Source: a virus
Lineage: Duplodnaviria; Caudoviricetes
Virus record (IMG/VR): IMGVR_UViG_3300030055_000003
Reading direction: 5' to 3' (one strand)
DNA length: 64,000 bases
A program made the position numbers and the translations under genes. The notes under the pieces were generated by a model. It was not told the DNA's origin. It searched no databases and saw only the letters and a list, made by a program, of their open reading frames with translations. Positions 2,477 through 63,998 of the stretch are shown piece after piece; the stretch's first letter is position 1; each line of letters begins with the position of its first letter.

Positions 2477-3517
2477 TCATCCCTCATATTTAAATTTACA
2501 ATTAGTATATAATTGCATAAATATCTCTTTGCCTTTATCGGTAACACTTTCTTTTCCTTGTAATAAGTCTAAATCATCATATATATAGTAAACATTACAT
2601 AACCCTTTTTTAAATTTCTTACATTCTACAAAAATATCATCTAAGATAACATCTTTGTCAAAGGCTAGTATTATATCTTTTCCTAGTTTAAGTAATTTTG
2701 TTAACTGTACTGGACTAATAACCTTTTTGCTTACTGCTACACAGTTATTAATATCCATATCATTACATTGCATAACTGACTTTTCTGCTTCGAATATGAA
2801 CACTTCATTAGATGATATAATATCAAAATAGTTTTCATATAAACCATATAAATAGAATTCTCCGACATACGGGTAATAGTAAAAATATTTTGGTATTCCT
2901 TTAATTTTATAATTACTATCCATCGTTCTTCCTTTGAATGTAAGTAATTCTCCATTATCATTTCTAATTGGAAAAACTACCCTATTATCTAATATGTCAT
3001 ATGAAACACCAAATTTAGTTTGTGTAGTCTTATTAATCCCATCTTGTAAAAATAAATCACATGTTTCTCTTATAAATCTCTGAGTGAAAGTTTCGTCCAA
3101 TATTAATTCATCATAATCGTCAAGTTTATTTATTTTATTTAAACTTCTTTTAAATTGTCTTAAAAAGCTATAACTAGAACTCTTTTCACTCTTTTTAATA
3201 TTGTTACTATATTTCAATCCACATTGTTTACATACAAACTGAATGGCTTCTGATAGACTATATTCATTTATGAATTGTATAAGAGTAAACACATCTTTAT
3301 ATTCGTATTTATCAAACTCACCTTTTCTTGAATATACTTCTGTTTTTAAATTATCATTTAATTTAATACTTATAGAAGTAAAGTTATCACCATCAGGCAA
3401 AGCACAAGTAATACGTTTTGAACTTTTTTTTATATGATGACAACCTATATTTTCTAATATATTTTCTATATATTGTGGATTCTCTTTTAGATATATCTTA
3501 AGTTCGTCCTTATCCAT
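2477..3517 (-). CDS. Phage DNA primase (YorJ-like)
   Basis: RVVFPIRN..G....KGR, IFEAEKSVM and TOPRIM LAFDKD; lies between dnaB and recJ. Confidence 0.85.
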   Translation of the reverse strand: MDKDELKIYLKENPQYIENILENIGCHHIKKSSKRITCALPDGDNFTSISIKLNDNLKTEVYSRKGEFDKYEYKDVFTLIQFINEYSLSEAIQFVCKQCGLKYSNNIKKSEKSSSYSFLRQFKRSLNKINKLDDYDELILDETFTQRFIRETCDLFLQDGINKTTQTKFGVSYDILDNRVVFPIRNDNGELLTFKGRTMDSNYKIKGIPKYFYYYPYVGEFYLYGLYENYFDIISSNEVFIFEAEKSVMQCNDMDINNCVAVSKKVISPVQLTKLLKLGKDIILAFDKDVILDDIFVECKKFKKGLCNVYYIYDDLDLLQGKESVTDKGKEIFMQLYTNCKFKYEG

Positions 3518-3532
3518 ATGCCTTACCTCCTT

Positions 3533-4930
3533 TTAATATGGTGAGTTTCCACCTTCTATATTAGAAAAGTTCTTAGCTTGAGTGATGATTGCTTTATCTC
3601 CCTCAAAAACAAAATTTAAATATTCTCCATCCTCCATTTGACCACCATTTCTATTATAATCAATTACTAATTTACAATTACCACTATCAATACCATCATT
3701 AAGCATTTCTTCTTTTGTCTTATGTATCCAATATGCTATAGTTGAAGCATATCTATTTATTTTATCGCTATCTGCTAATCTTTGTTCTTTTGGACTCATT
3801 TGACCACCTGCTATTATAGGTATATCTAATGCTCCACCTACCTTATTTTTTAAGAAATTAGTCATATCTCCTAATATATTATGTTCTTTATTGTCTCCAC
3901 CACCAGTATCATCTACTTTTATATAATCATAAATTAACAATCCTAAGTTCATAGATTGTTTTAGTTGTTTCGCTGTCATATAAATTTTATCTTTAGTCCA
4001 ACCAACATCATATTTGTGAACTAATGGCTTATTTTTTAACCATTCTTTAGCTTCTTCTACTGCCTTTTCTTCTTGTAATGAGTAATTACCATTCTTAACC
4101 TTTTTTATATCGACTCCAGACTTTAATGCTAAAAATCTTATCATCCATCTTTCATCACTCATTTCAGTATCAAATATAGCTACAGGAACTCCGTTTTCAA
4201 CCTTATGTATGGCTTCATTAAGAAAGAACATTGATTTACCACTTTTGGCTCTACCACCTATTACAACTAATTCTCCATTTTCATAAGTAAAATATTCATT
4301 TAGTCCTTTATATTTACTAGGTATACCTGCAAATCCTGAATCTGTTCTCCTACTTTTTATTAATTCCCACAATTCATCTGCCTTATCTCCTATCATTTGA
4401 ACATTAGTATCTACAATATAATCATCTGCAAATTTAGTTATATCAGTTTGAACTTTATAATTAATACTGTTTATATCTTCATTACTTGATAATACTCCAT
4501 TAGCCATTTCTCTTAGTTTTATGTATGTATCTCTTTTGAATGCATTAGATATTATATTATTAGCAATAAATTCATATCCTTCAATTTCAGACCTAGCTAC
4601 TAGCCTTAAATCATCTAACCATCCACATATATCTTTTGAAATATCATCAAATTCATTAATTATATTTTTAAAACCTTTATTACTCTCAACTTCAGTCATT
4701 ATTAAAAAGTTATCTATTTCTGTAATACCTTTTTCCATTAAGTTATTAACTATATGATAAATACATGCTAATTCTCTATTATAAAACTGATTCGGTTTCA
4801 GATATTCCGTTTTATAAATAAACTCTGGATGTACTAATATAGTTCCTATTACTCCTGTTTCTGAAATATCATCTTTAGGTAACTCTATATTATGTAATTT
4901 TTCGAACTTTTTAATGTCATTAGCTTTCAT
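3533..4930 (-). CDS. dnaB: DnaB-like replicative helicase (YorI-like)
   Basis: Walker A GGRAKSGKS, FDTEMS, IYDYIK, LADSDKI, YNRNG. Confidence 0.92.
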   Translation of the reverse strand: MKANDIKKFEKLHNIELPKDDISETGVIGTILVHPEFIYKTEYLKPNQFYNRELACIYHIVNNLMEKGITEIDNFLIMTEVESNKGFKNIINEFDDISKDICGWLDDLRLVARSEIEGYEFIANNIISNAFKRDTYIKLREMANGVLSSNEDINSINYKVQTDITKFADDYIVDTNVQMIGDKADELWELIKSRRTDSGFAGIPSKYKGLNEYFTYENGELVVIGGRAKSGKSMFFLNEAIHKVENGVPVAIFDTEMSDERWMIRFLALKSGVDIKKVKNGNYSLQEEKAVEEAKEWLKNKPLVHKYDVGWTKDKIYMTAKQLKQSMNLGLLIYDYIKVDDTGGGDNKEHNILGDMTNFLKNKVGGALDIPIIAGGQMSPKEQRLADSDKINRYASTIAYWIHKTKEEMLNDGIDSGNCKLVIDYNRNGGQMEDGEYLNFVFEGDKAIITQAKNFSNIEGGNSPY

Positions 4931-7919: not shown

Positions 7920-9225
7920 TTGTGAACATTATATGAACACAATTCCAATTTATAAGTCCATAAGTTATAACTCTTTAACAAGTCATACTAACTCTTATTG
8001 GATGTAAATGTACACCCTCTATTTCATCTACTTTAAAAGCTTCTGAAAATACCTTTTTAATTATATTATAAGCTCCATTAACATCTGAATTAATTAGTTT
8101 GTTTGTATTAGATTTAAATAAACCTCTTACTACACGTCTGCTTTTATTATATGTATCTTTACCTATTACTTCATTATCTAAAAAACTACAACCACTCGTA
8201 TAACTTTCGTTATTAGTTATTACTTTAATTCCTATATTAGAACACTTATATGTAATCATTTTTATTAATTTATCATATGGAATTGATATAAAATTCTGAT
8301 TAGCTGATTTGAATAAACCACTTTCCTGTTTCCAAGTTTTATTCAAACCAATTACTATGATCGTAATATTTAATCCTTCCGCATAAGTAACTATAGATTT
8401 ACTAGCATTATGTAAATAATAATTTATTTTATTATCTCTATCTTGTTGTAATTTATCTAACTTATTGCTCCAGTCCTTTTTATGTCGTTTCTTTAAATCC
8501 GACTGTAATTTAGCTTTCTTCTTATTGTAATATTGATTTATAGATTTGATAACTTTACCATTTATAATGATAGGTTGTACACCTACATTATTAACGCATG
8601 TAGCTAGGTTATCTACTCCTAAATCAATCCCTAATATTCTGTTATTGAATTCTTTAGGCTCTTGAACTTCAATCTCATAAACTATTTCTAATATGTAAGT
8701 TGAACCTTTTGGAATAATTCTAGTTTGTAATAGTTTATTTTTAACATTGGTTTTAAATAAGTTATTCAGTCCTTTTAGTGGTATAAAAGCAAAGTATAAA
8801 TATCCATCATATAAATGGGTTTGCATATTAGTCATTATAAAAATATGTCTACCATTTTTCTTTTTATATCTAGGTAATTTTGGTTTTCCAAGATATTTGT
8901 TTGGATGTTTCCAATAATCTTTTACACTTACTAAGAATGACTTCCAATCTTTACAAAGCAATCTCAATGTCATTTGTGCTGAATTTGAACCTATATCTTT
9001 GAAAGCCTCAGTCTTATTAAGTTCCTTTGACAACTCCACATATTGTAATATTGGACTACCTCTTACAAATAATTGTCTTTGAGTATAATTCGCTAGATTG
9101 TAAATGTTCTTAGCTTTAAAACAATACTCATCAAACAATTTCCATGCTTTGTGGTTTTTATCTATTATATGTCTTTCGACTCTTTGAGTTTTAATGTTAT
9201 CACCTCCTTTCAATCTTGTGTCATT
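7920..9225 (-). mobile_element. Lone-tnpB (IS1341-like) element; ends not resolved
   Basis: tnpB without tnpA; about 55 nt of 3' non-coding sequence ending near TTCAC is the candidate right end / omegaRNA region. Confidence 0.45.
7975..9213 (-). CDS. tnpB: IS200/IS605-family RNA-guided endonuclease TnpB
   Basis: RuvC-I LGIDLGVDNLA, IVIGLNKTWKQE, NESYTS, RuvC-III INSDVNGAYNI. Confidence 0.9.
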   Translation of the reverse strand: MKGGDNIKTQRVERHIIDKNHKAWKLFDEYCFKAKNIYNLANYTQRQLFVRGSPILQYVELSKELNKTEAFKDIGSNSAQMTLRLLCKDWKSFLVSVKDYWKHPNKYLGKPKLPRYKKKNGRHIFIMTNMQTHLYDGYLYFAFIPLKGLNNLFKTNVKNKLLQTRIIPKGSTYILEIVYEIEVQEPKEFNNRILGIDLGVDNLATCVNNVGVQPIIINGKVIKSINQYYNKKKAKLQSDLKKRHKKDWSNKLDKLQQDRDNKINYYLHNASKSIVTYAEGLNITIIVIGLNKTWKQESGLFKSANQNFISIPYDKLIKMITYKCSNIGIKVITNNESYTSGCSFLDNEVIGKDTYNKSRRVVRGLFKSNTNKLINSDVNGAYNIIKKVFSEAFKVDEIEGVHLHPIRVSMTC

Positions 9226-56820: not shown

Positions 56821-57021
56821 TTTATATTCCTCCTCACTCTTCTTAAAATCTCAATTTATTTAGTTATATTTCTATTAATTTATTGACTACCATACTATTT
56901 TTAATTCTTCTTGGATTTCTTGGTCAATGTTATTTATAGTAATATATACTTTAAATAAGCCACTTAACACAATCAATCCAAATGTAAACATTATTAATTT
57001 TAACATACTTTTATCCTCCTC

Positions 57022-57687
57022 TTAATGATTAGTTACACTCTTTTTTCTATCAATGAATTCTATATACTGTTCTTTTTCATTGATTATATATCTTTTATAA
57101 GCTGACTTCCTATTCTCAATTACATTATTTTTATTCTTTTCTGAAGTATATCTTAATTTAATATTACTACCTTTAAATTTAGGGACTCTTTCAGATGCTT
57201 CATATATTTTACTTTCATCTGAATTAAATTCATTCAAATCATCACTTGCTTTTTTACTATAAACAATATTGTTAACTATATTTTCTACTTCTTCTAAAAT
57301 ATCCCCAGTCATTTCTAATTGCCTTTTATGATATCCGTTTTCAAAATTCAATTTTTCCAAACTATTTGCTTGTCCATTAATGTTTGATTCTTTTATAGAA
57401 AATCCTCCTAATTGTTTAATTAATAATTCCATAGTTTTTAACTCATTCTTTGTTGTTCTCCTTGCTTTTCTTAATTTGTTTAATGCTTTGCAAAACTTCC
57501 ATCCAGTATACAAACTAAACTTTTCTAACCCTTCAATCTTATGTAATAAATCCTGTTGAACATCATTAAATACTTTATCTTTTATCCTAAGTTTATTATA
57601 ATATTCTTTAGCTTCTGTAATTTGTTTATTAATTTCATTGGCATAATCTACTGCAATACACATTTTCATCTTTCCTTTCACTATCAT
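57022..57687 (-). CDS. Helical hypothetical protein, first gene after a promoter
   Basis: QQDLLHKIE...LRKARR..KNEL. Confidence 0.6.
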   Translation of the reverse strand: MIVKGKMKMCIAVDYANEINKQITEAKEYYNKLRIKDKVFNDVQQDLLHKIEGLEKFSLYTGWKFCKALNKLRKARRTTKNELKTMELLIKQLGGFSIKESNINGQANSLEKLNFENGYHKRQLEMTGDILEEVENIVNNIVYSKKASDDLNEFNSDESKIYEASERVPKFKGSNIKLRYTSEKNKNNVIENRKSAYKRYIINEKEQYIEFIDRKKSVTNH

Positions 57688-57768: not shown

Positions 57769-59364
57769 TTAAATATGTATTGATCTATTATCATATTGAA
57801 AATGCAATCCCTTGTATTCCTGTCCTGTATTGCAAGCATGAGTTATTCCTTTTCTATAAAGTTTTATTCCAAATTCTTTTTCACTATTTGTATAACATTC
57901 ATTTATTGATGTAAATTCTTTATTATACTCTATATTTATAATTGATTTTTTACTAGAATCTCTTATAAATTTCTTATATTCTATTAATCCCTCATCTTCC
58001 GCTTGTTTTAAATAATCTCCTATTACTGTATTATCTAAATTAAGTAGTCTACCTATTTCAGAAGCATTATGTATTCCATTATTCCATAATTCAATTGCAT
58101 TAATTACATTTTTATCATGAATTTCTACTGCTGATATATAATTGCATAGATTATATTCTCTTGCCCTTTTTAAGTACCTCTTAACAGTTTTAAAATCTAT
58201 ATCCATTATTTTAGCAATCTCCATATGTCCTACTCCTTGATTATAATATTCACAAGCTTTAACTAAATACGAACTTAAAGATTCTTGTTCACATAAATTC
58301 CAATTAATTTTAGATATATCAAATAGTTTATTAATTTTTTCATTGTTTAATATATTATTTTTTATGTATTCAAATTTACTATACCTACAGTCAATTACTA
58401 TGTAATTTTCTTCTTTTATATTATTACTTAAAGCTAGTTTTTCTTTTAATTTATCATTTTCAGACTCTTCGTAATAACTTCTTCTAGAAAAACTACATTC
58501 TTCATAATGCTGAAGTCCATTTGTTTCTATCACAATGTTATTATGTTCTATATAAAAATCATATTCTTTGTTACCACATAAAGACTCTATTTCTGATAAT
58601 ACATTTTTAGACCAATCAAAATGTTTATGTCTTTTTATTTGTAAATTTAATTGTTTAAGTAGATTATATGTAAATTTTTCACCATAACTAAATCCGTCAG
58701 AACAAACTTGACAACAAATATCTTTTTCTCGATATAATGTAGATATTGCCATATTATCTCTTGGAACTTTACAAATCGGACAATGTAATAATCCTTTGTC
58801 TTGGCTTCCAAATGTTCTTGATTCTGCATCTTTAGTATTTTTAAAAAACTTAACCATCCACGGGTCTGTATCAGCGATTGTATTAATTCCTAAAACTGGT
58901 ACTTTATTAGAGCAACATCCACAACCTTGTTTCTTTTTCAAATTTCCCTCATTTATTCTTCCATTTTCCCAACCACATTCTAAGCATTCAAATATATATT
59001 CTTTTGTATTATCATTTTTATTTCTTGATTGTTCTTTAATCTTTATTTTTCCAGTAGATACTTCGATAATATCTCCTACATTGTAATAATGTTTACGTGT
59101 ATTTATTCCTAATAATTCACCTAATTGGCAATTCTGAAAATTACCTGTCCATATGTAAAATATATCTTTATTTAAATATTTTAAACCTAATATAGTTAGA
59201 CTATTTTCTCTTTTTACTTCTACAATTTCAACCCAACCTTCTTTATCATAATAAATAAATTTAACTTTATGACTTTTACATTCAAACCAATTTATTAAAC
59301 TATTGTTATTCTTTTTTCTAGGTAAATTTTCTAAAAATACTTTTCTAATTTTATTTTCTTTCAT
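57769..59364 (-). CDS. Free-standing Vsr/EDxHD-like endonuclease with zinc ribbons, HTH and NUMOD1-like tail; paralog of 15691-17157
   Basis: RKVFLENLP...INW, CxxC repeats, YDFYI...IETNGLQHY, IVIDC. Confidence 0.65.
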   Translation of the reverse strand: MKENKIRKVFLENLPRKKNNNSLINWFECKSHKVKFIYYDKEGWVEIVEVKRENSLTILGLKYLNKDIFYIWTGNFQNCQLGELLGINTRKHYYNVGDIIEVSTGKIKIKEQSRNKNDNTKEYIFECLECGWENGRINEGNLKKKQGCGCCSNKVPVLGINTIADTDPWMVKFFKNTKDAESRTFGSQDKGLLHCPICKVPRDNMAISTLYREKDICCQVCSDGFSYGEKFTYNLLKQLNLQIKRHKHFDWSKNVLSEIESLCGNKEYDFYIEHNNIVIETNGLQHYEECSFSRRSYYEESENDKLKEKLALSNNIKEENYIVIDCRYSKFEYIKNNILNNEKINKLFDISKINWNLCEQESLSSYLVKACEYYNQGVGHMEIAKIMDIDFKTVKRYLKRAREYNLCNYISAVEIHDKNVINAIELWNNGIHNASEIGRLLNLDNTVIGDYLKQAEDEGLIEYKKFIRDSSKKSIINIEYNKEFTSINECYTNSEKEFGIKLYRKGITHACNTGQEYKGLHFQYDNRSIHI

Positions 59365-59404: not shown

Positions 59405-59439
59405 GAACACAAACCAAGATTACTCCTAGTTTGTGTCTT
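59405..59439 (-). terminator. Terminator closing the MazF-peptide operon
   Basis: AGACACAAACUAGG-AGUAAU-CUUGGUUUGUGUUCU then UUGU; G-U pairs on the minus strand. Confidence 0.6.
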
Positions 59440-59469
59440 GTTGTTATGTATTTGTTTTAGTTACAATTC

Positions 59470-59574
59470 CTAGCCTCTACCAGAGCTAATTGCGTAACAA
59501 CTTATTTGACTAGCCATTGTAGCGATTGCTATTACTGCCATTAAAACAAATACTTTTACTTTTGATTTATTCAT
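59470..59574 (-). CDS. 34-aa secreted signalling-peptide precursor, AimP/Phr-like (absent from ORF track)
   Basis: SD AAGGAGGTGA; MNKSKVKVFVLMAVIAIATMASQISCYAISSGRG* with basic N-region, hydrophobic core and short polar tail. Confidence 0.75.
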   Translation of the reverse strand: MNKSKVKVFVLMAVIAIATMASQISCYAISSGRG

Positions 59575-59668
59575 TTGTACTTCACCTCCTTCATATGCAT
59601 CTTTTCAACACAAAATATATTTATGCTGAAGTATGCATATGAATAGAAGGATAACATTTAGTTATTTA

Positions 59669-60325
59669 TTAGCATGTACCATATTTTACTTTTATTTGTT
59701 GTTGCAATAACAATATTTTCTCACACAATATAATATTTATATTGTTTACCTCCTTTATTAATTCTTGAAAAGCCTCATCATATTGTGATGAATTGTTATG
59801 TATTAGCATGTCCTCTGCAACCACAAGGACATTACTAAAATTTTTTTCTAATAAACTTAAATTTAGTTTAGCAATAAGCTTTTCTAAATAACCTTCAACA
59901 TTATATGGATCACATCTTTTATAAGTTTCATAACAAAATTTATAAATTTTTATTAATTCTTCATTTGATAATTCTTTTTTATAGCAATGAACATAATTAT
60001 TTAAAGCTTTTGCATAGTCTTGTTTATGTCTTTGTGTGGTTAAATAATTAGGATAGTTCTCTAATTTTTCTTTAAGTTCTTTTGAATATAATCTAGCCGA
60101 GGTTATACTACCATTTAAATTTTGTTCAATACATTTTATTTCAGCATTTGTTAAATCACTTAATAATAATCTTATTTCATCTATATCTTTTAATGAATCT
60201 ATTTCTTGAAACCTCATTTTTTTTAGCATATTCCTAGCTTTTTCCACTCCATTTATCTCATTATCCCATTTATGATATACATCACTTTCTATCCTATCTG
60301 TTACGCTTCTTCTCTTATTTATCAT
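59669..60325 (-). CDS. Predicted all-helical (TPR-like) protein; candidate peptide receptor or antitoxin
   Basis: Amphipathic helices such as DYAKALNNYVHCY; lies between MazF and the peptide gene. Confidence 0.45.
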   Translation of the reverse strand: MINKRRSVTDRIESDVYHKWDNEINGVEKARNMLKKMRFQEIDSLKDIDEIRLLLSDLTNAEIKCIEQNLNGSITSARLYSKELKEKLENYPNYLTTQRHKQDYAKALNNYVHCYKKELSNEELIKIYKFCYETYKRCDPYNVEGYLEKLIAKLNLSLLEKNFSNVLVVAEDMLIHNNSSQYDEAFQELIKEVNNINIILCEKILLLQQQIKVKYGTC

Positions 60326-60350
60326 TTTCTCATCCCCATTCCACCATAAG

Positions 60351-61154
60351 TTATATTGCTATCACTTCTTTTTCTTTCTCACATTGCATATAAAATTCCC
60401 TGTAATTTAGATTATTATCTTCACAATATATTTGTAATTCATATAATAAATCACTTCTTTCTTTTCGCAGAAGGTCGATTAAACTTTCTGTTTTGGTTTC
60501 TATAATTAATTCTTCACAATTCTTAATAGCATTTAATCGTTTGTTTATTTTATTTTGCATATATCTAGGCAGTTTTTCAAGTGGAGTCTTTTCTTGTAAT
60601 TCATTCATTGAAATATCTTTTGCTATTTTAATTTTCTTTTTTGTTATATCATCAAGTACTCCAACTCTGCTTTTAATTCTTCTTTTATCTAAAGTTCTTA
60701 CTTGCTCTAGCATAACTATTGAATCTTTAGGTAATCCAAATTGACCTGCTGAAATCTCGACATGCGTTGGAAGTTTACTTTTAGTTTGTTGGCTTGTAAC
60801 AAATGCTACTATAACAGTAGGAGAATACTTATTTCCAATTTCGTTCTGTATACAAATAGCGAATCTGTCATTATTTTGTTCGCTCCATCGCCCCCCATCT
60901 AAATTGACATATAATACCTCACCCCATTCAATATCCTTTAAATCTATATTATTATTTATTTTATTATCAGCAATATTTCTATTGCTATGTACATTGTTAA
61001 CTTCTATTTTTACTTGTTTAATTTGTTTATTAATATCTAGGTCTTTAACTTCTATCTTTGCTTCAATTAACTTATTATCATTCTTTAATTCCTCTTTATC
61101 CATTTCCAACTTAATCATCATTAGTTGTTCTCTTAACTCTAACATTACAACCAC
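60351..61154 (-). CDS. mazF: PemK/MazF-family endoribonuclease with N- and C-terminal extensions
   Basis: WGEVLYVNL...SEQ...R...IQNEIGNKYSPTVIVA.VT...KLPTHVEI...DSIVMLEQVRTLDK.R; likely ATG at 61145. Confidence 0.9.
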   Translation of the reverse strand: MVVMLELREQLMMIKLEMDKEELKNDNKLIEAKIEVKDLDINKQIKQVKIEVNNVHSNRNIADNKINNNIDLKDIEWGEVLYVNLDGGRWSEQNNDRFAICIQNEIGNKYSPTVIVAFVTSQQTKSKLPTHVEISAGQFGLPKDSIVMLEQVRTLDKRRIKSRVGVLDDITKKKIKIAKDISMNELQEKTPLEKLPRYMQNKINKRLNAIKNCEELIIETKTESLIDLLRKERSDLLYELQIYCEDNNLNYREFYMQCEKEKEVIAI

Positions 61155-61226
61155 CTTCCTCTAATTATTAAATCCCTTTAAAATTACTTTTTTATTATAT
61201 TAATTTGTTCCTGTTTCTATACTCTT

Positions 61227-61434
61227 ATGTTACATCTTATTTCCAAACTTGTCAATACTTTTTTTAAAATATTTATTTATTTCTTTTAATTTATTGACTT
61301 GTTCCTTATGAATATTATCCTACCACCATGTGGTAACTCTGTCAATACTTTTTTAAATTTATTTTTGTTCTTTTATTAATTTGTTTGTATCTCTTCTATG
61401 ACCTAATAATATACCCTACGGAATATAATGTCAA
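61227..61434 (-). promoter_or_regulatory. Three tandem sigma-A promoters
   Basis: TTGACA at 61250, 61340 and 61429, each 17 nt from TAACAT, TAGGAT or TATTAT and preceded by AAAAGT(A/G). Confidence 0.75.
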
Positions 61435-61525
61435 CACTTTTATCAAAATAATTTGTAGTTCTGTTAATTTATTTTAAACACTCCTTAAACATAGCAAATA
61501 AGCCAAATAAATAAACAAAAAGAAA

Positions 61526-62657: not shown

Positions 62658-63998
62658 CTACATTACCTCCTTAGCTATCTTTTCAAAATATTCATATATG
62701 TGTTTTACATTACAATCTTTTATATCTAATTTAAATTTTTTATTTAAATCTTCATTAATTTTTATTAGCTTATCAGCCACATCTCCAGCTAATAATCTTG
62801 AATTTTCATTGTTTTTTAATACGTTCGCTATTGCAAGATAACCAACAAACATATTAGGTTTTAATAAAAAGTTATGTTCTTTCATTACTTCTATATCGTC
62901 ACCAAAGTATTGAGACGATAAATATTCAATTAACATATCTATAATATTAGATATTTTTCTTGCTTCTCTTTCAGATGTTACGTCATTATCTATTTTTTCA
63001 ATATCCATAAACTCTACACTATCATTAAGAACACTTAGATAAGTTAATGATTTTTTTACTTTACATTCGCTAATAATATTTGCAACCTTATTTTTTAATG
63101 TTTTTGAATTAGTAGTTACATATTGTATAAATCTATTTTCTGGTGTATCTTTTAAAGTTTTTGCATAGGTTTTATCTGTTGAATTTTGTTCAAAAGTATC
63201 GGAAGTATATTGTTTTGCTTCACTTGGACTCATTAAAAAGAAAAATACACCTAATCCTTCATCTTCAACTTCTGTGTCTTCAAAATAAGCGTCCGCTAAA
63301 GCAGTAGATCTATGATTTCCATCATTTATTATCATTGGAGTATAATTAATTGAATTACTATCAAAATTTGGAGTAACTTCTAGTCTTCCAAACTTCTTCT
63401 TATACTCAGGAATAAATTTAACTTGTGGTTCTTTATTAGGCATATCTAAAACAGTAAAAGTTATAGCTGTTGGTTTTATATTGTGTTTTTTAAATCTTTG
63501 AATTAAAGAATTAATTCCATCTTTATTTACATTGATTTTTTCAATCTCTTCACCATTTGGAAGTTTTACAATTTTTCTAGCTCTTTGAATCCCTTCAAAA
63601 TTTCCCAACTTATTATTTTCTTTTATTTGCGCAAGTTGTTTAGCTTTGATGAAAAACCAATAAGCATTATTTCCAACCTTTTGACAATCTTCAAATACAA
63701 TTGTTTTTAATTCTTCTTGCTTTTCAGCTTCTTGATATACCTCATAATTCGTTAATACTGTACCTGTAAAATAATCTGTTGGATTTATATTAACTCCTAA
63801 ATTCTTTTCATTAGCTTTTGCAAAATTAAAAATTGATTTTGATAAAGCTATTAATACATTTTCATTTTTTATTTCATGTACTGTTAGCCCTTTATTGAAT
63901 AGTAATGCTGGAATATCTAAATTTAATCCTTTAGCACTAAATTCTTTATTGATATCTTGTTGTAATCTCATATTCGCTATTTCATTTTGAATAACCAA
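62658..63998 (-). CDS. DndB/ParB-like (DGQHR-type) protein, YopQ-like (start may lie outside window)
   Basis: IINDGNHRSTAL; AITF; context upstream of the MrpR-like gene. Confidence 0.6.
   Translation of the reverse strand: MVIQNEIANMRLQQDINKEFSAKGLNLDIPALLFNKGLTVHEIKNENVLIALSKSIFNFAKANEKNLGVNINPTDYFTGTVLTNYEVYQEAEKQEELKTIVFEDCQKVGNNAYWFFIKAKQLAQIKENNKLGNFEGIQRARKIVKLPNGEEIEKINVNKDGINSLIQRFKKHNIKPTAITFTVLDMPNKEPQVKFIPEYKKKFGRLEVTPNFDSNSINYTPMIINDGNHRSTALADAYFEDTEVEDEGLGVFFFLMSPSEAKQYTSDTFEQNSTDKTYAKTLKDTPENRFIQYVTTNSKTLKNKVANIISECKVKKSLTYLSVLNDSVEFMDIEKIDNDVTSEREARKISNIIDMLIEYLSSQYFGDDIEVMKEHNFLLKPNMFVGYLAIANVLKNNENSRLLAGDVADKLIKINEDLNKKFKLDIKDCNVKHIYEYFEKIAKEVM

Follow-up and report, generated by a model that had tools for sequence, protein, structure and literature searches.

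The viral DNA analysed here, a stretch of 64,000 nucleotides (nt) from the IMG/VR record IMGVR_UViG_3300030055_000003 (Caudoviricetes) that is called the window throughout, carries a compact cassette in which three promoter boxes, a gene for an extended homolog of the endoribonuclease MazF/PemK, a gene for an orphan protein of 218 amino acids (aa), a leader hairpin, a 34-aa open reading frame (ORF) and a terminator follow one another. An earlier note on this DNA had described this order and had read it as a peptide-gated toxin–antitoxin switch, with the 218-aa protein as a Rap-like receptor that lacks a helix-turn-helix (HTH) domain. The source is a virus record of 141 kb (57% complete according to CheckV), and the G+C content is 25%. 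With coordinates given for the whole 64-kb window and the cassette read on the minus strand, its elements are as follows.

61227..61441, minus strand: three tandem sigma-A-type promoters at a spacing of about 90 nt, each in the extended box AAAAGTRTTGACA
60351..61145, minus strand: extended MazF/PemK endoribonuclease homolog, 264 aa (Pfam PF02452, 1.3e-24)
59669..60325, minus strand: 218-aa orphan protein, five-hairpin tetratricopeptide-repeat (TPR)-like fold in an AlphaFold model, candidate peptide receptor
59585..59650, minus strand: RNA leader hairpin (-32.8 kcal/mol, z -5.5, 0/200 shuffles as stable)
59470..59574, minus strand: 34-aa pre-peptide that begins with basic residues, continues with a hydrophobic core and ends in the tail ISSGRG directly behind a CYA site
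59406..59437, minus strand: intrinsic terminator ending the cassette, with a 14-pair stem and a T-run; the next gene lies 42 nt on

The layout stands as the earlier note gave it, in that the ORF of the 218-aa protein (60325-59669) follows the MazF stop after a gap of exactly 25 nt, and the leader hairpin, the 34-aa signal-peptide ORF and the terminator are all present on the minus strand.

Conservation of the cassette and its control elements

A profile search yielded 42 cluster representatives of the 218-aa family, mostly of about 200-230 aa, and genomic contexts were retrieved for part of the family; close relatives of the window protein are few (four found). Thirteen distinct further loci were obtained in this way (L001, L002, L008, L009, L012, L013, L015, L016, L017, L018, L019, L020 and L024), while L028 and L029 from IMG/VR, as 59% and 49% receptor relatives of L018 and L019, were each counted once with their partner; L028 belongs to the record UViG_2872351278_000001, a number in the format used for isolate genomes. 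Including the window, this gives 14 distinct receptor–peptide contexts, all of them metagenomic or from uncharacterised prophages, with receptor identities to the window protein that range from 70% down to 21%. The three-gene synteny that the earlier note had proposed to look for was recovered: the order of a PemK/MazF-like gene (216-300 aa), a TPR gene and a small ORF is kept at every locus with flanks and without exception, that is in 13/13 further loci, with gaps of 9-32 nt between the MazF-like and TPR genes, and contigs that end early agree with it. Furthermore, a gene for an MrpR-like protein lies directly upstream of the MazF gene in eight loci (the window, L002, L012, L017, L018, L024, L028 and L029), and is itself preceded by a DndB/YopQ-like gene with a Pfam match in the window, L018 and L024; in L002 and L017, a large gene with no Pfam match on record occupies the same position.

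The carriers of the cassette are large phages from peat and other metagenomes; related records measure 115-218 kb, and one has direct terminal repeats. A metagenome pattern scan for further loci returned no contigs beyond two already in the set, and for P0032 and P0036 nothing was found in IMG/VR. The cassette speaks for a separate receptor family among large, uncultured phages of temperate type.

The control elements ahead of the MazF-like gene are conserved as well. The three promoters described in the earlier note were located as sites of the TTGACA-N17 -10 type at 61434-61406, 61345-61317 and 61255-61227. A window-wide promoter scan found 14 sites against 17.4 expected, which is not above chance; what supports the promoters is therefore the extended box common to them, together with its conservation. 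This 13-nt box, AAAAGTRTTGACA, occurs in three exact copies inside the 400-nt spacer upstream of the MazF-like gene, has four matches at no more than one mismatch in the whole 64-kb window (0.79 expected), and recurs in one to three copies at the same place, ahead of the MazF gene, in seven other loci (L001, L002, L012, L013, L016, L017 and L018). At the other end of the cassette, the terminator belongs to three terminator-like sites found in a scan in which 0.2 were expected, and terminator-like hairpins also lie 3' of the peptide ORF in the flanking sequence of other loci.

Two of the promoters carry further motifs. The spacer of the middle promoter holds a perfect 15-nt palindrome, TACCACATGGTGGTA (61335-61321), that is shared by L016, and the spacer of the proximal promoter (61227-61255) contains TTGGAAAT.AG, conserved in L001, L002 and L012. 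Both motifs resemble operator sites within promoters, perhaps for MrpR-like or SroE-like proteins.

The three gene products

The MazF-like gene most likely starts at the ATG at 61145, behind the Shine-Dalgarno (SD) sequence GGAAGG, whereas the mechanical ORF start is the GTG at 61154; a database gene call of the same 264-aa length exists. The Pfam match (87 bits against a cut-off of 23.1) is limited to aa 78-176, and the protein therefore has N- and C-terminal extensions, as the description of it as an extended homolog had implied. It can be divided into a variable N-terminal part of helix and disorder (1-72), the MazF domain (about 73-180), a KTPLE.LP linker and a three-helix domain (194-262). 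Searches against the PDB matched MazF/EndoA structures at 1e-25, with about 50% identity between the central domain and Bacillus MazF/EndoA. R94 and T117, in 264-aa numbering, align to R25 and T48 of Bacillus cereus MazF (7BXY), are invariant in nine family members and correspond to residues with a catalytic role (PMC7354611). Both the domain score and the retained catalytic Arg and Thr place the protein in the MazF/PemK family (PF02452), and on this evidence it appears to be a MazF RNase with intact-looking catalytic residues.

The best-conserved region of the MazF-like protein is its C-terminal part, comprising the KTPLE.LP linker and the three-helix domain (modelled at pLDDT 84-90), while the N-terminal extension, predicted as a helix followed by disorder, is missing in L017. 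A search with the C-terminal region alone returned only PemK-domain proteins of this MazF-like family; no recognisable relatives of the domain were found, an Atlas structure look-up giving only short three-helix look-alikes from mixed families, and the MazF family profile has no similarity to SPbeta YopM or YopN. In the locus of the most distant receptor, with the tail TINP (L020:5-298 and L021:39-254), the product encoded ahead of the receptor can be aligned to MazF-like proteins over the linker and C-terminal domain alone, from ..KTALERLP.. onwards. This 97-aa product of L020 was considered as a stand-alone C-terminal domain and set aside, as its ORF reaches the contig end and may be a truncated MazF-like gene.

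Between the upstream terminator and the MazF gene there is no coding-strand ORF of at least 25 aa and therefore no adjacent MazE, in agreement with the earlier note. Moreover, neither PF04014 (AbrB-type) nor PF01402 (ribbon-helix-helix, RHH) has a match in the 141-kb record, itself incomplete, and PF04014 has none in three related, incomplete records (the four records range in size from 115 to 218 kb). The MazE/PemI-type antitoxin, AbrB-type or RHH and usually encoded upstream, by which a type II MazEF module is recognised was thus not found beside this MazF.

The protein encoded next, the candidate receptor, was modelled with AlphaFold from a five-sequence alignment as ten helices that form five hairpins (pLDDT 90, pTM 0.84). 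In VIA-align, the top match is an unrelated TPR protein (Z 13.7), and RRNPP receptors are among the matches in the same range, with RapI at 11.7, PlcR at 11.2, NprR at 10.1 and phi105 Rap at 9.8, where helical-repeat Z values below about 13 may reflect a common arrangement only. The whole 218-aa model superposes on residues 104-286 of PlcR, its five-TPR peptide-binding part (Z 11.2), and matches from Foldseek (PDB, AFDB clusters, BFVD) and the ESM Atlas were limited to generic TPR or Sel1 proteins. Conserved Tyr and Asn positions of the protein include Y104, Y111 and N155. According to the model, the fold is TPR-like and of the size of the PlcR sensor domain, and the TPR-type helical-repeat domain expected of RRNPP(A) members is present; placement within RRNPP is beyond the reach of structure.

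At the sequence level, no Pfam TPR or HTH family matched any of 38 members of the 218-aa family, and the window protein itself has no match in Pfam, PHROGs or PADLOC. The family profile matched no PDB sequence and, in hhalign, gave nothing against SPbeta YopN; tblastn of the protein against GenBank phages and a pattern scan of GTDB species genomes likewise returned nothing. As judged from these searches, the protein represents an orphan family without a DNA-binding domain. The proposed lack of an HTH is thereby upheld, while "Rap-like" survives only in part, as a generic TPR fold with no detectable sequence relation to Rap or AimR. RRNPP receptors are sought in a range of 250-500 aa, and validated ones measure 285-473 aa (PMC10075063). 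The RRNPP_detector definition combines this range with a TPR HMM match; at 218 aa (about 200-230 aa across the family), the protein is too short and lacks such a match, and current detectors, RRNPP_detector included, would therefore miss the cassette.

The third gene is preceded, 7 nt upstream, by the strong SD AAGGAGGTGA, and an equivalent small ORF follows the receptor gene at every locus with sequence there. These ORFs encode about 30-38 aa, with two to four Lys/Arg at the start and then a hydrophobic core (maximum 12-aa Kyte-Doolittle mean 2.3-2.9), and in most loci an AxA-type site (AFA, ASA, AMA, VFA or CYA) stands directly before six to seven polar residues. In 11 loci, the tails are of the form xxxxRG (ISSGRG twice, IGSGRG, TGSSRG, TTGSGRG twice, SSGSGRG, IGSSRG, GTMGRG, GTSPRG and TGSVRG), the last two residues R-G being invariant and Ser at -4 nearly so. 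The N-terminal signal parts diverge, and positions before the tail are conserved no more than in any hydrophobic segment. The codons of the tail vary synonymously (Ser as AGC, AGT, TCT, TCA or TCG; Arg as AGA, CGT or CGA; Gly as all four), which argues for a constraint on the peptide and not on the DNA. At the sequence level, the gene has what is expected of an arbitrium pre-peptide gene, namely an adjacent, downstream position, a signal-type sequence and about six conserved C-terminal residues. That the small ORF might encode a precursor of the AgrD type or of a lipoprotein was considered and rejected, as a lipobox is absent, Cys is unconserved and no AgrB-like gene is present.

Tail and receptor change together, a point that the earlier note had proposed to test. 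More distant receptors (L028 and L029) are accompanied by the tails GNGWG and GGGWG, and the most distant one (L020) by TINP, so that RG, GWG and TINP tails sort by receptor clade; receptor and tail identities correlate in a Mantel test (r 0.71, p 1e-4), for which common descent could suffice.

Ahead of the peptide ORF, the leader hairpin contains the SD AAGGAGG of that ORF in its 3' arm and pairs it. Equivalent hairpins occur in ten loci including the window (z -4.6 to -8.3), with a weak one in L029 and none in L028, and in a nine-sequence alignment pairing is preserved by compensatory substitutions at both positions in 11/20 consensus pairs. Several G-U pairs on the sense strand argue for an RNA structure rather than a protein-binding palindrome, and since a U-tract is lacking, the hairpin is not a terminator; Rfam has no match to it. 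Its pairing with the SD suggests translational control of peptide synthesis. The triplet ACA, at which some MazF enzymes cleave, was also observed 1-3 nt before the peptide AUG in 7/9 aligned loci (the window at 59575-59582, L001, L002, L009, L012, L013 and L015), where it may reflect chance in AT-rich DNA or common descent.

Genomic setting and a candidate circuit

The cassette directly follows a pair of genes that resemble the yopQ/yopR (sroE/sroF) genes of SPbeta, as the earlier note had stated. The features around the cassette are listed below.

62658..63998, minus strand: YopQ/SroE-like (DndB-type) gene, BLASTP to SPbeta YopQ at E 1e-8 over 382 aa
61547..62656, minus strand: MrpR/SroF (YopR)-like repressor-type gene, Pfam MrpR_N_CB at 27.0 bits, exactly at the cut-off
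61548-61526, minus strand: terminator of the MrpR-like gene, from the terminator scan
56887-57006, minus strand: second small hydrophobic ORF (in other loci at L008:1382-1501, L009:1107-1226 and L013:2273-2377)

The YopQ/SroE-like protein also matches Pfam DndB at 2.5e-6 (27.2 bits against a cut-off of 29.1) and, weakly, DndB in PADLOC; the TTG listed as its start lies 2 nt inside the window edge, and the true start is probably outside the window. The MrpR-like protein matches the integrase family phrog_5830 (9e-15) and has no match in GenBank phages by tblastn. In SPbeta, the order on one strand is aimR-aimP-(aimX)-yopM-N-O-P-Q-R, with aimR-aimP upstream of yopM-R, while the cassette lies downstream of the yopQ-yopR-like pair, and thus in the same control region on the other side of the repressor pair. 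No AimR homolog was found in the 141-kb record, which is incomplete. Downstream, every gene has the orientation of the cassette as far as the replication genes (DnaB-type helicase, DHH), which places the cassette at the head of an early transcription block. An aimX-like gene was not recognised, and genes downstream of the cassette vary between loci.

Among these, the 531-aa gene that follows the cassette (57769-59364, minus strand) matches phrog_4538, homing-endonuclease/HNH PHROGs and HTH_28/HTH_40. In L029, a homolog (3456-4079) of the window's 221-aa gene (57022-57687) directly follows the peptide ORF with no intervening gene, which gives the 531-aa gene the appearance of a mobile insertion, homing-endonuclease-like, before the next conserved gene; L002 carries this insertion too. 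A second conserved hydrophobic ORF of 34-39 aa, with a strong SD and an end resembling ..EELKII[KW], recurs in several loci a few hundred bases past the cassette and may encode a small membrane protein of the early region. Farther away, a TnpB-type gene (OrfB_IS605 with a Cas12f1-like TNB domain; 412 aa, 7975-9213, minus strand) lies amid the replication genes. The 24 listed runs that are possible contig sources are all peat metagenome DNA, with no RNA among them.

The best reading of these observations is that the cassette is a phage signalling unit in the lysis–lysogeny control region of large temperate phages of the SPbeta type, that is with SroE/SroF-type repressors. That the peptide and the TPR protein form a signalling pair is likely. 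The full chain, in which an arbitrium-like peptide and a minimal TPR receptor would act post-translationally on the phage's own MazF, is a tentative proposal that somewhat less than half of our confidence stands behind. In phi3T, arbitrium works through the host MazF (PMC10769878; 10.1101/2025.11.27.690993); free host MazF pushes that phage to lysogeny, and AimX and YosL inhibit host MazF. With a MazF of its own next to a peptide sensor, a phage could reach this decision in the absence of AimR or AimX.

Under the proposed chain, the tandem promoters would transcribe the MazF-like, TPR and peptide genes together, and the pre-peptide would be exported and, in most loci, cut right after the AxA-type signal-peptidase site, freeing a short xxxxRG peptide. 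This peptide would accumulate with the number of infections, be re-imported and bind the TPR groove as in RRNPP systems, with the SD-masking hairpin adding translational control over peptide output. As a receptor without an HTH, the TPR protein would have to act on protein, and its likeliest partner would be the co-translated MazF-like protein, contacted through the conserved linker or C-terminal domain; this is the most economical target because it is always adjacent and no other antitoxin is in sight. The TPR protein would then serve as a peptide-sensitive antitoxin or gate on MazF, and the peptide-loaded receptor would free phage MazF at high phage density and favour lysogeny, a direction guessed by analogy with phi3T. 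A complex prediction for two copies of MazF-like residues 70-264 with the TPR protein scored 0.30 against a mark of 0.32 and is neutral as to binding. The most novel version, in which signal peptidase directly frees a hexapeptide and the five-TPR receptor is a peptide-sensitive antitoxin on the KTPLE.LP linker or C-terminal domain, so that density would be converted into RNase activity and would set lysis or lysogeny with no transcription-factor step, is more doubtful still; if true, it would form a new class of communication between phages, with the phi3T axis from arbitrium to host MazF in effect condensed into a single operon of phages that infect low-G+C anaerobes.

Several points weigh against this proposal. 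The TPR match is generic, in that the best structural matches are unrelated TPR proteins and the Z values for RRNPP members, within the range that may reflect a common helical-repeat arrangement, are no better; a sequence relation to AimR or Rap is undetectable, with an hhalign probability of 0.3% against SPbeta AimR. The correlation between receptor and tail can arise from shared descent alone, without specificity. In two loci with RG-type tails, L001 and L013, no AxA-type site stands immediately in front of the six tail residues: such a site is absent from L013 altogether, and in L001 the nearest one (after ISSA) would leave an 11-residue peptide, so their peptides, judging by sequence, may be exported or processed differently. 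In addition, a small hydrophobic ORF preceded by a hairpin that masks its SD is compatible with a membrane peptide of the type I toxin kind, too, and the strict linkage to an MrpR-like gene fits a repressor-directed receptor equally well. Binding of the receptor to the peptide and to MazF is a proposal, expression and temperate behaviour are presumed from metagenomic DNA, and a "Clostridiales" host is a guess.

Of the rival explanations, the one that survives best, and that we hold rather unlikely, keeps a Rap-Phr-like receptor–peptide pair and gives it another target, either an MrpR/SroF- or SroE-like repressor, with the receptor as a peptide-sensitive antirepressor, or a host regulator; the MazF-like gene would then merely share the operon and serve, as an early gene in its own right, in host shut-off, anti-defence or superinfection exclusion. 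HTH-less TPR receptors with adjacent exported peptides do exist in phages, phi105 Rap is among the structural matches, an MrpR-like gene is always ahead of the cassette where upstream DNA is visible, and most arbitrium systems use small antirepressors of the phage repressor (10.1101/2025.11.23.689978). Stand-alone MazF/PemK genes are, moreover, common in phages. However, the receptor family is never seen without an extended MazF directly upstream, the 13/13 further loci being consistent in this; the MazF C-terminal domain is never seen apart from the pairing; the spacing of 9-32 nt suggests co-production; and the TPR protein is the sole antitoxin candidate present.

A plain toxin–antitoxin pair without signalling is improbable. 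It would make the TPR protein a constitutive, unconventional MazF antitoxin and the small ORF an unrelated membrane peptide, type I toxin-like or holin-modulator-like, the translation of which the SD-masking hairpin keeps low. A toxin gene with a closely spaced partner behind it and without a MazE gene fits this explanation, as do the hydrophobicity of the small ORF, the absence of an AxA site in L013 and the structured 5' leader that hides the SD, such leaders being a hallmark of type I toxin mRNAs. Selection, however, acts on the short polar tail and not on the hydrophobic part, the tail stands right after signal-peptidase-type sites in most loci, and its class switches with receptor clade; the TPR groove is a peptide-binding module; and in the promoter scan no antisense promoter faces the small ORF. 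With conservation on the polar tail and no facing promoter in that scan, the ORF is not classed as a type I toxin-like peptide, although the SD-masking leader is present.

Least probable is that the MazF-like protein is a sequence-specific RNA-processing regulator of early transcripts, its own leader included, with the TPR protein and peptide tuning its specificity or stability and no antitoxin logic: in phi3T, MazF leaves the sroF operon intact and degrades other phage mRNAs (10.1101/2025.11.27.690993), the operon of the cassette has a conserved structured leader with the ACA just before the AUG in most aligned loci, and the cassette is the first unit in a long run of early and replication genes on one strand. 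The idea is speculation, however, and the MazF domain shares about 50% identity with MazF/EndoA proteins that are genuine toxins.

Comparison with known systems

One of the nearest parallels to the proposed signalling unit is arbitrium of SPbeta and phi3T. Both are phage-encoded, lie in a lysogeny control region beside yopQ/yopR (sroE/sroF)-type genes, and combine a TPR-type intracellular partner and a MazF RNase in the circuit with a short signal-sequence pre-peptide whose C-terminal mature part contains Arg-Gly, as xxxxRG in the cassette and as xxxRGA in Clade-2 AimP peptides (PMC13220667). AimR has 386 aa and an HTH, whereas the cassette receptor has 218 aa, no HTH and only the negligible hhalign probability given above; an AimR-family receptor (HTH and TPR, about 380 aa) is therefore not what the cassette encodes. 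No aimX-type output gene was identified, and the cassette MazF is phage-borne, extended and co-transcribed, while arbitrium uses the host MazF. The cassette lies downstream of the repressor genes and SPbeta aimR-aimP upstream, and its tail directly follows a signal-peptidase-type site, whereas in SPbeta AimP about 20 further residues precede the mature peptide.

Rap-Phr systems, including the phage Rap proteins of phi3T and phi105 (PDB 8RTE), share with the cassette, on its proposed reading, an HTH-less TPR receptor, action between proteins and an adjacent gene for an exported peptide, of which the C-terminal five to six residues are the signal; phage copies exist. Rap proteins, however, measure about 350-380 aa and consist of an N-terminal helix bundle and about seven TPRs, compared with five hairpins in the cassette protein; there is no sequence similarity, and the likely target would be MazF in the cassette in place of the response regulators addressed by Rap. 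With PlcR-PapR and RRNPP(A) systems, the cassette has in common the adjacent exported pre-peptide and the superposition of the 218-aa model on PlcR residues 104-286, and it differs in that its protein has no HTH and no Pfam TPR match and falls below the range of 250-500 aa.

On the toxin side, the cassette MazF domain resembles that of MazEF modules in its identity of about 50% to Bacillus MazF/EndoA and its conserved catalytic Arg and Thr, but no MazE is present, the toxin gene comes first and its product has N- and C-terminal extensions, and the candidate partner is a TPR protein. MazF activity is reportedly modulated by short extracellular death factor (EDF) peptides (PMC3668371). For EDF, direct binding to MazF has been reported, whereas the cassette peptide is encoded by a gene beside the toxin and has its own signal sequence.

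To our knowledge, phage peptide communication has so far comprised AimR-type and Rap-type receptors, almost all in Bacillus, and in a search of a limited literature collection no paper was found that brings together peptide signalling, a TPR protein and a MazF of phage origin. The cassette would thus add a new receptor family to phage peptide communication, with an output that is probably new as well. With phi3T linked to lysis–lysogeny via the host MazF, a cassette that holds its own MazF and its sensor in one operon makes a direct link from peptide to RNase testable. If the TPR protein is an antitoxin, toxins of the MazF family would have in it a ligand-gated antitoxin of a new type, and gating of this antitoxin by the peptide, if confirmed, would make the system categorically new. 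Altogether, the cassette would work like arbitrium or Rap-Phr yet falls outside both by their defining features, and it contains a true member of the MazF family that is not part of a MazEF module.

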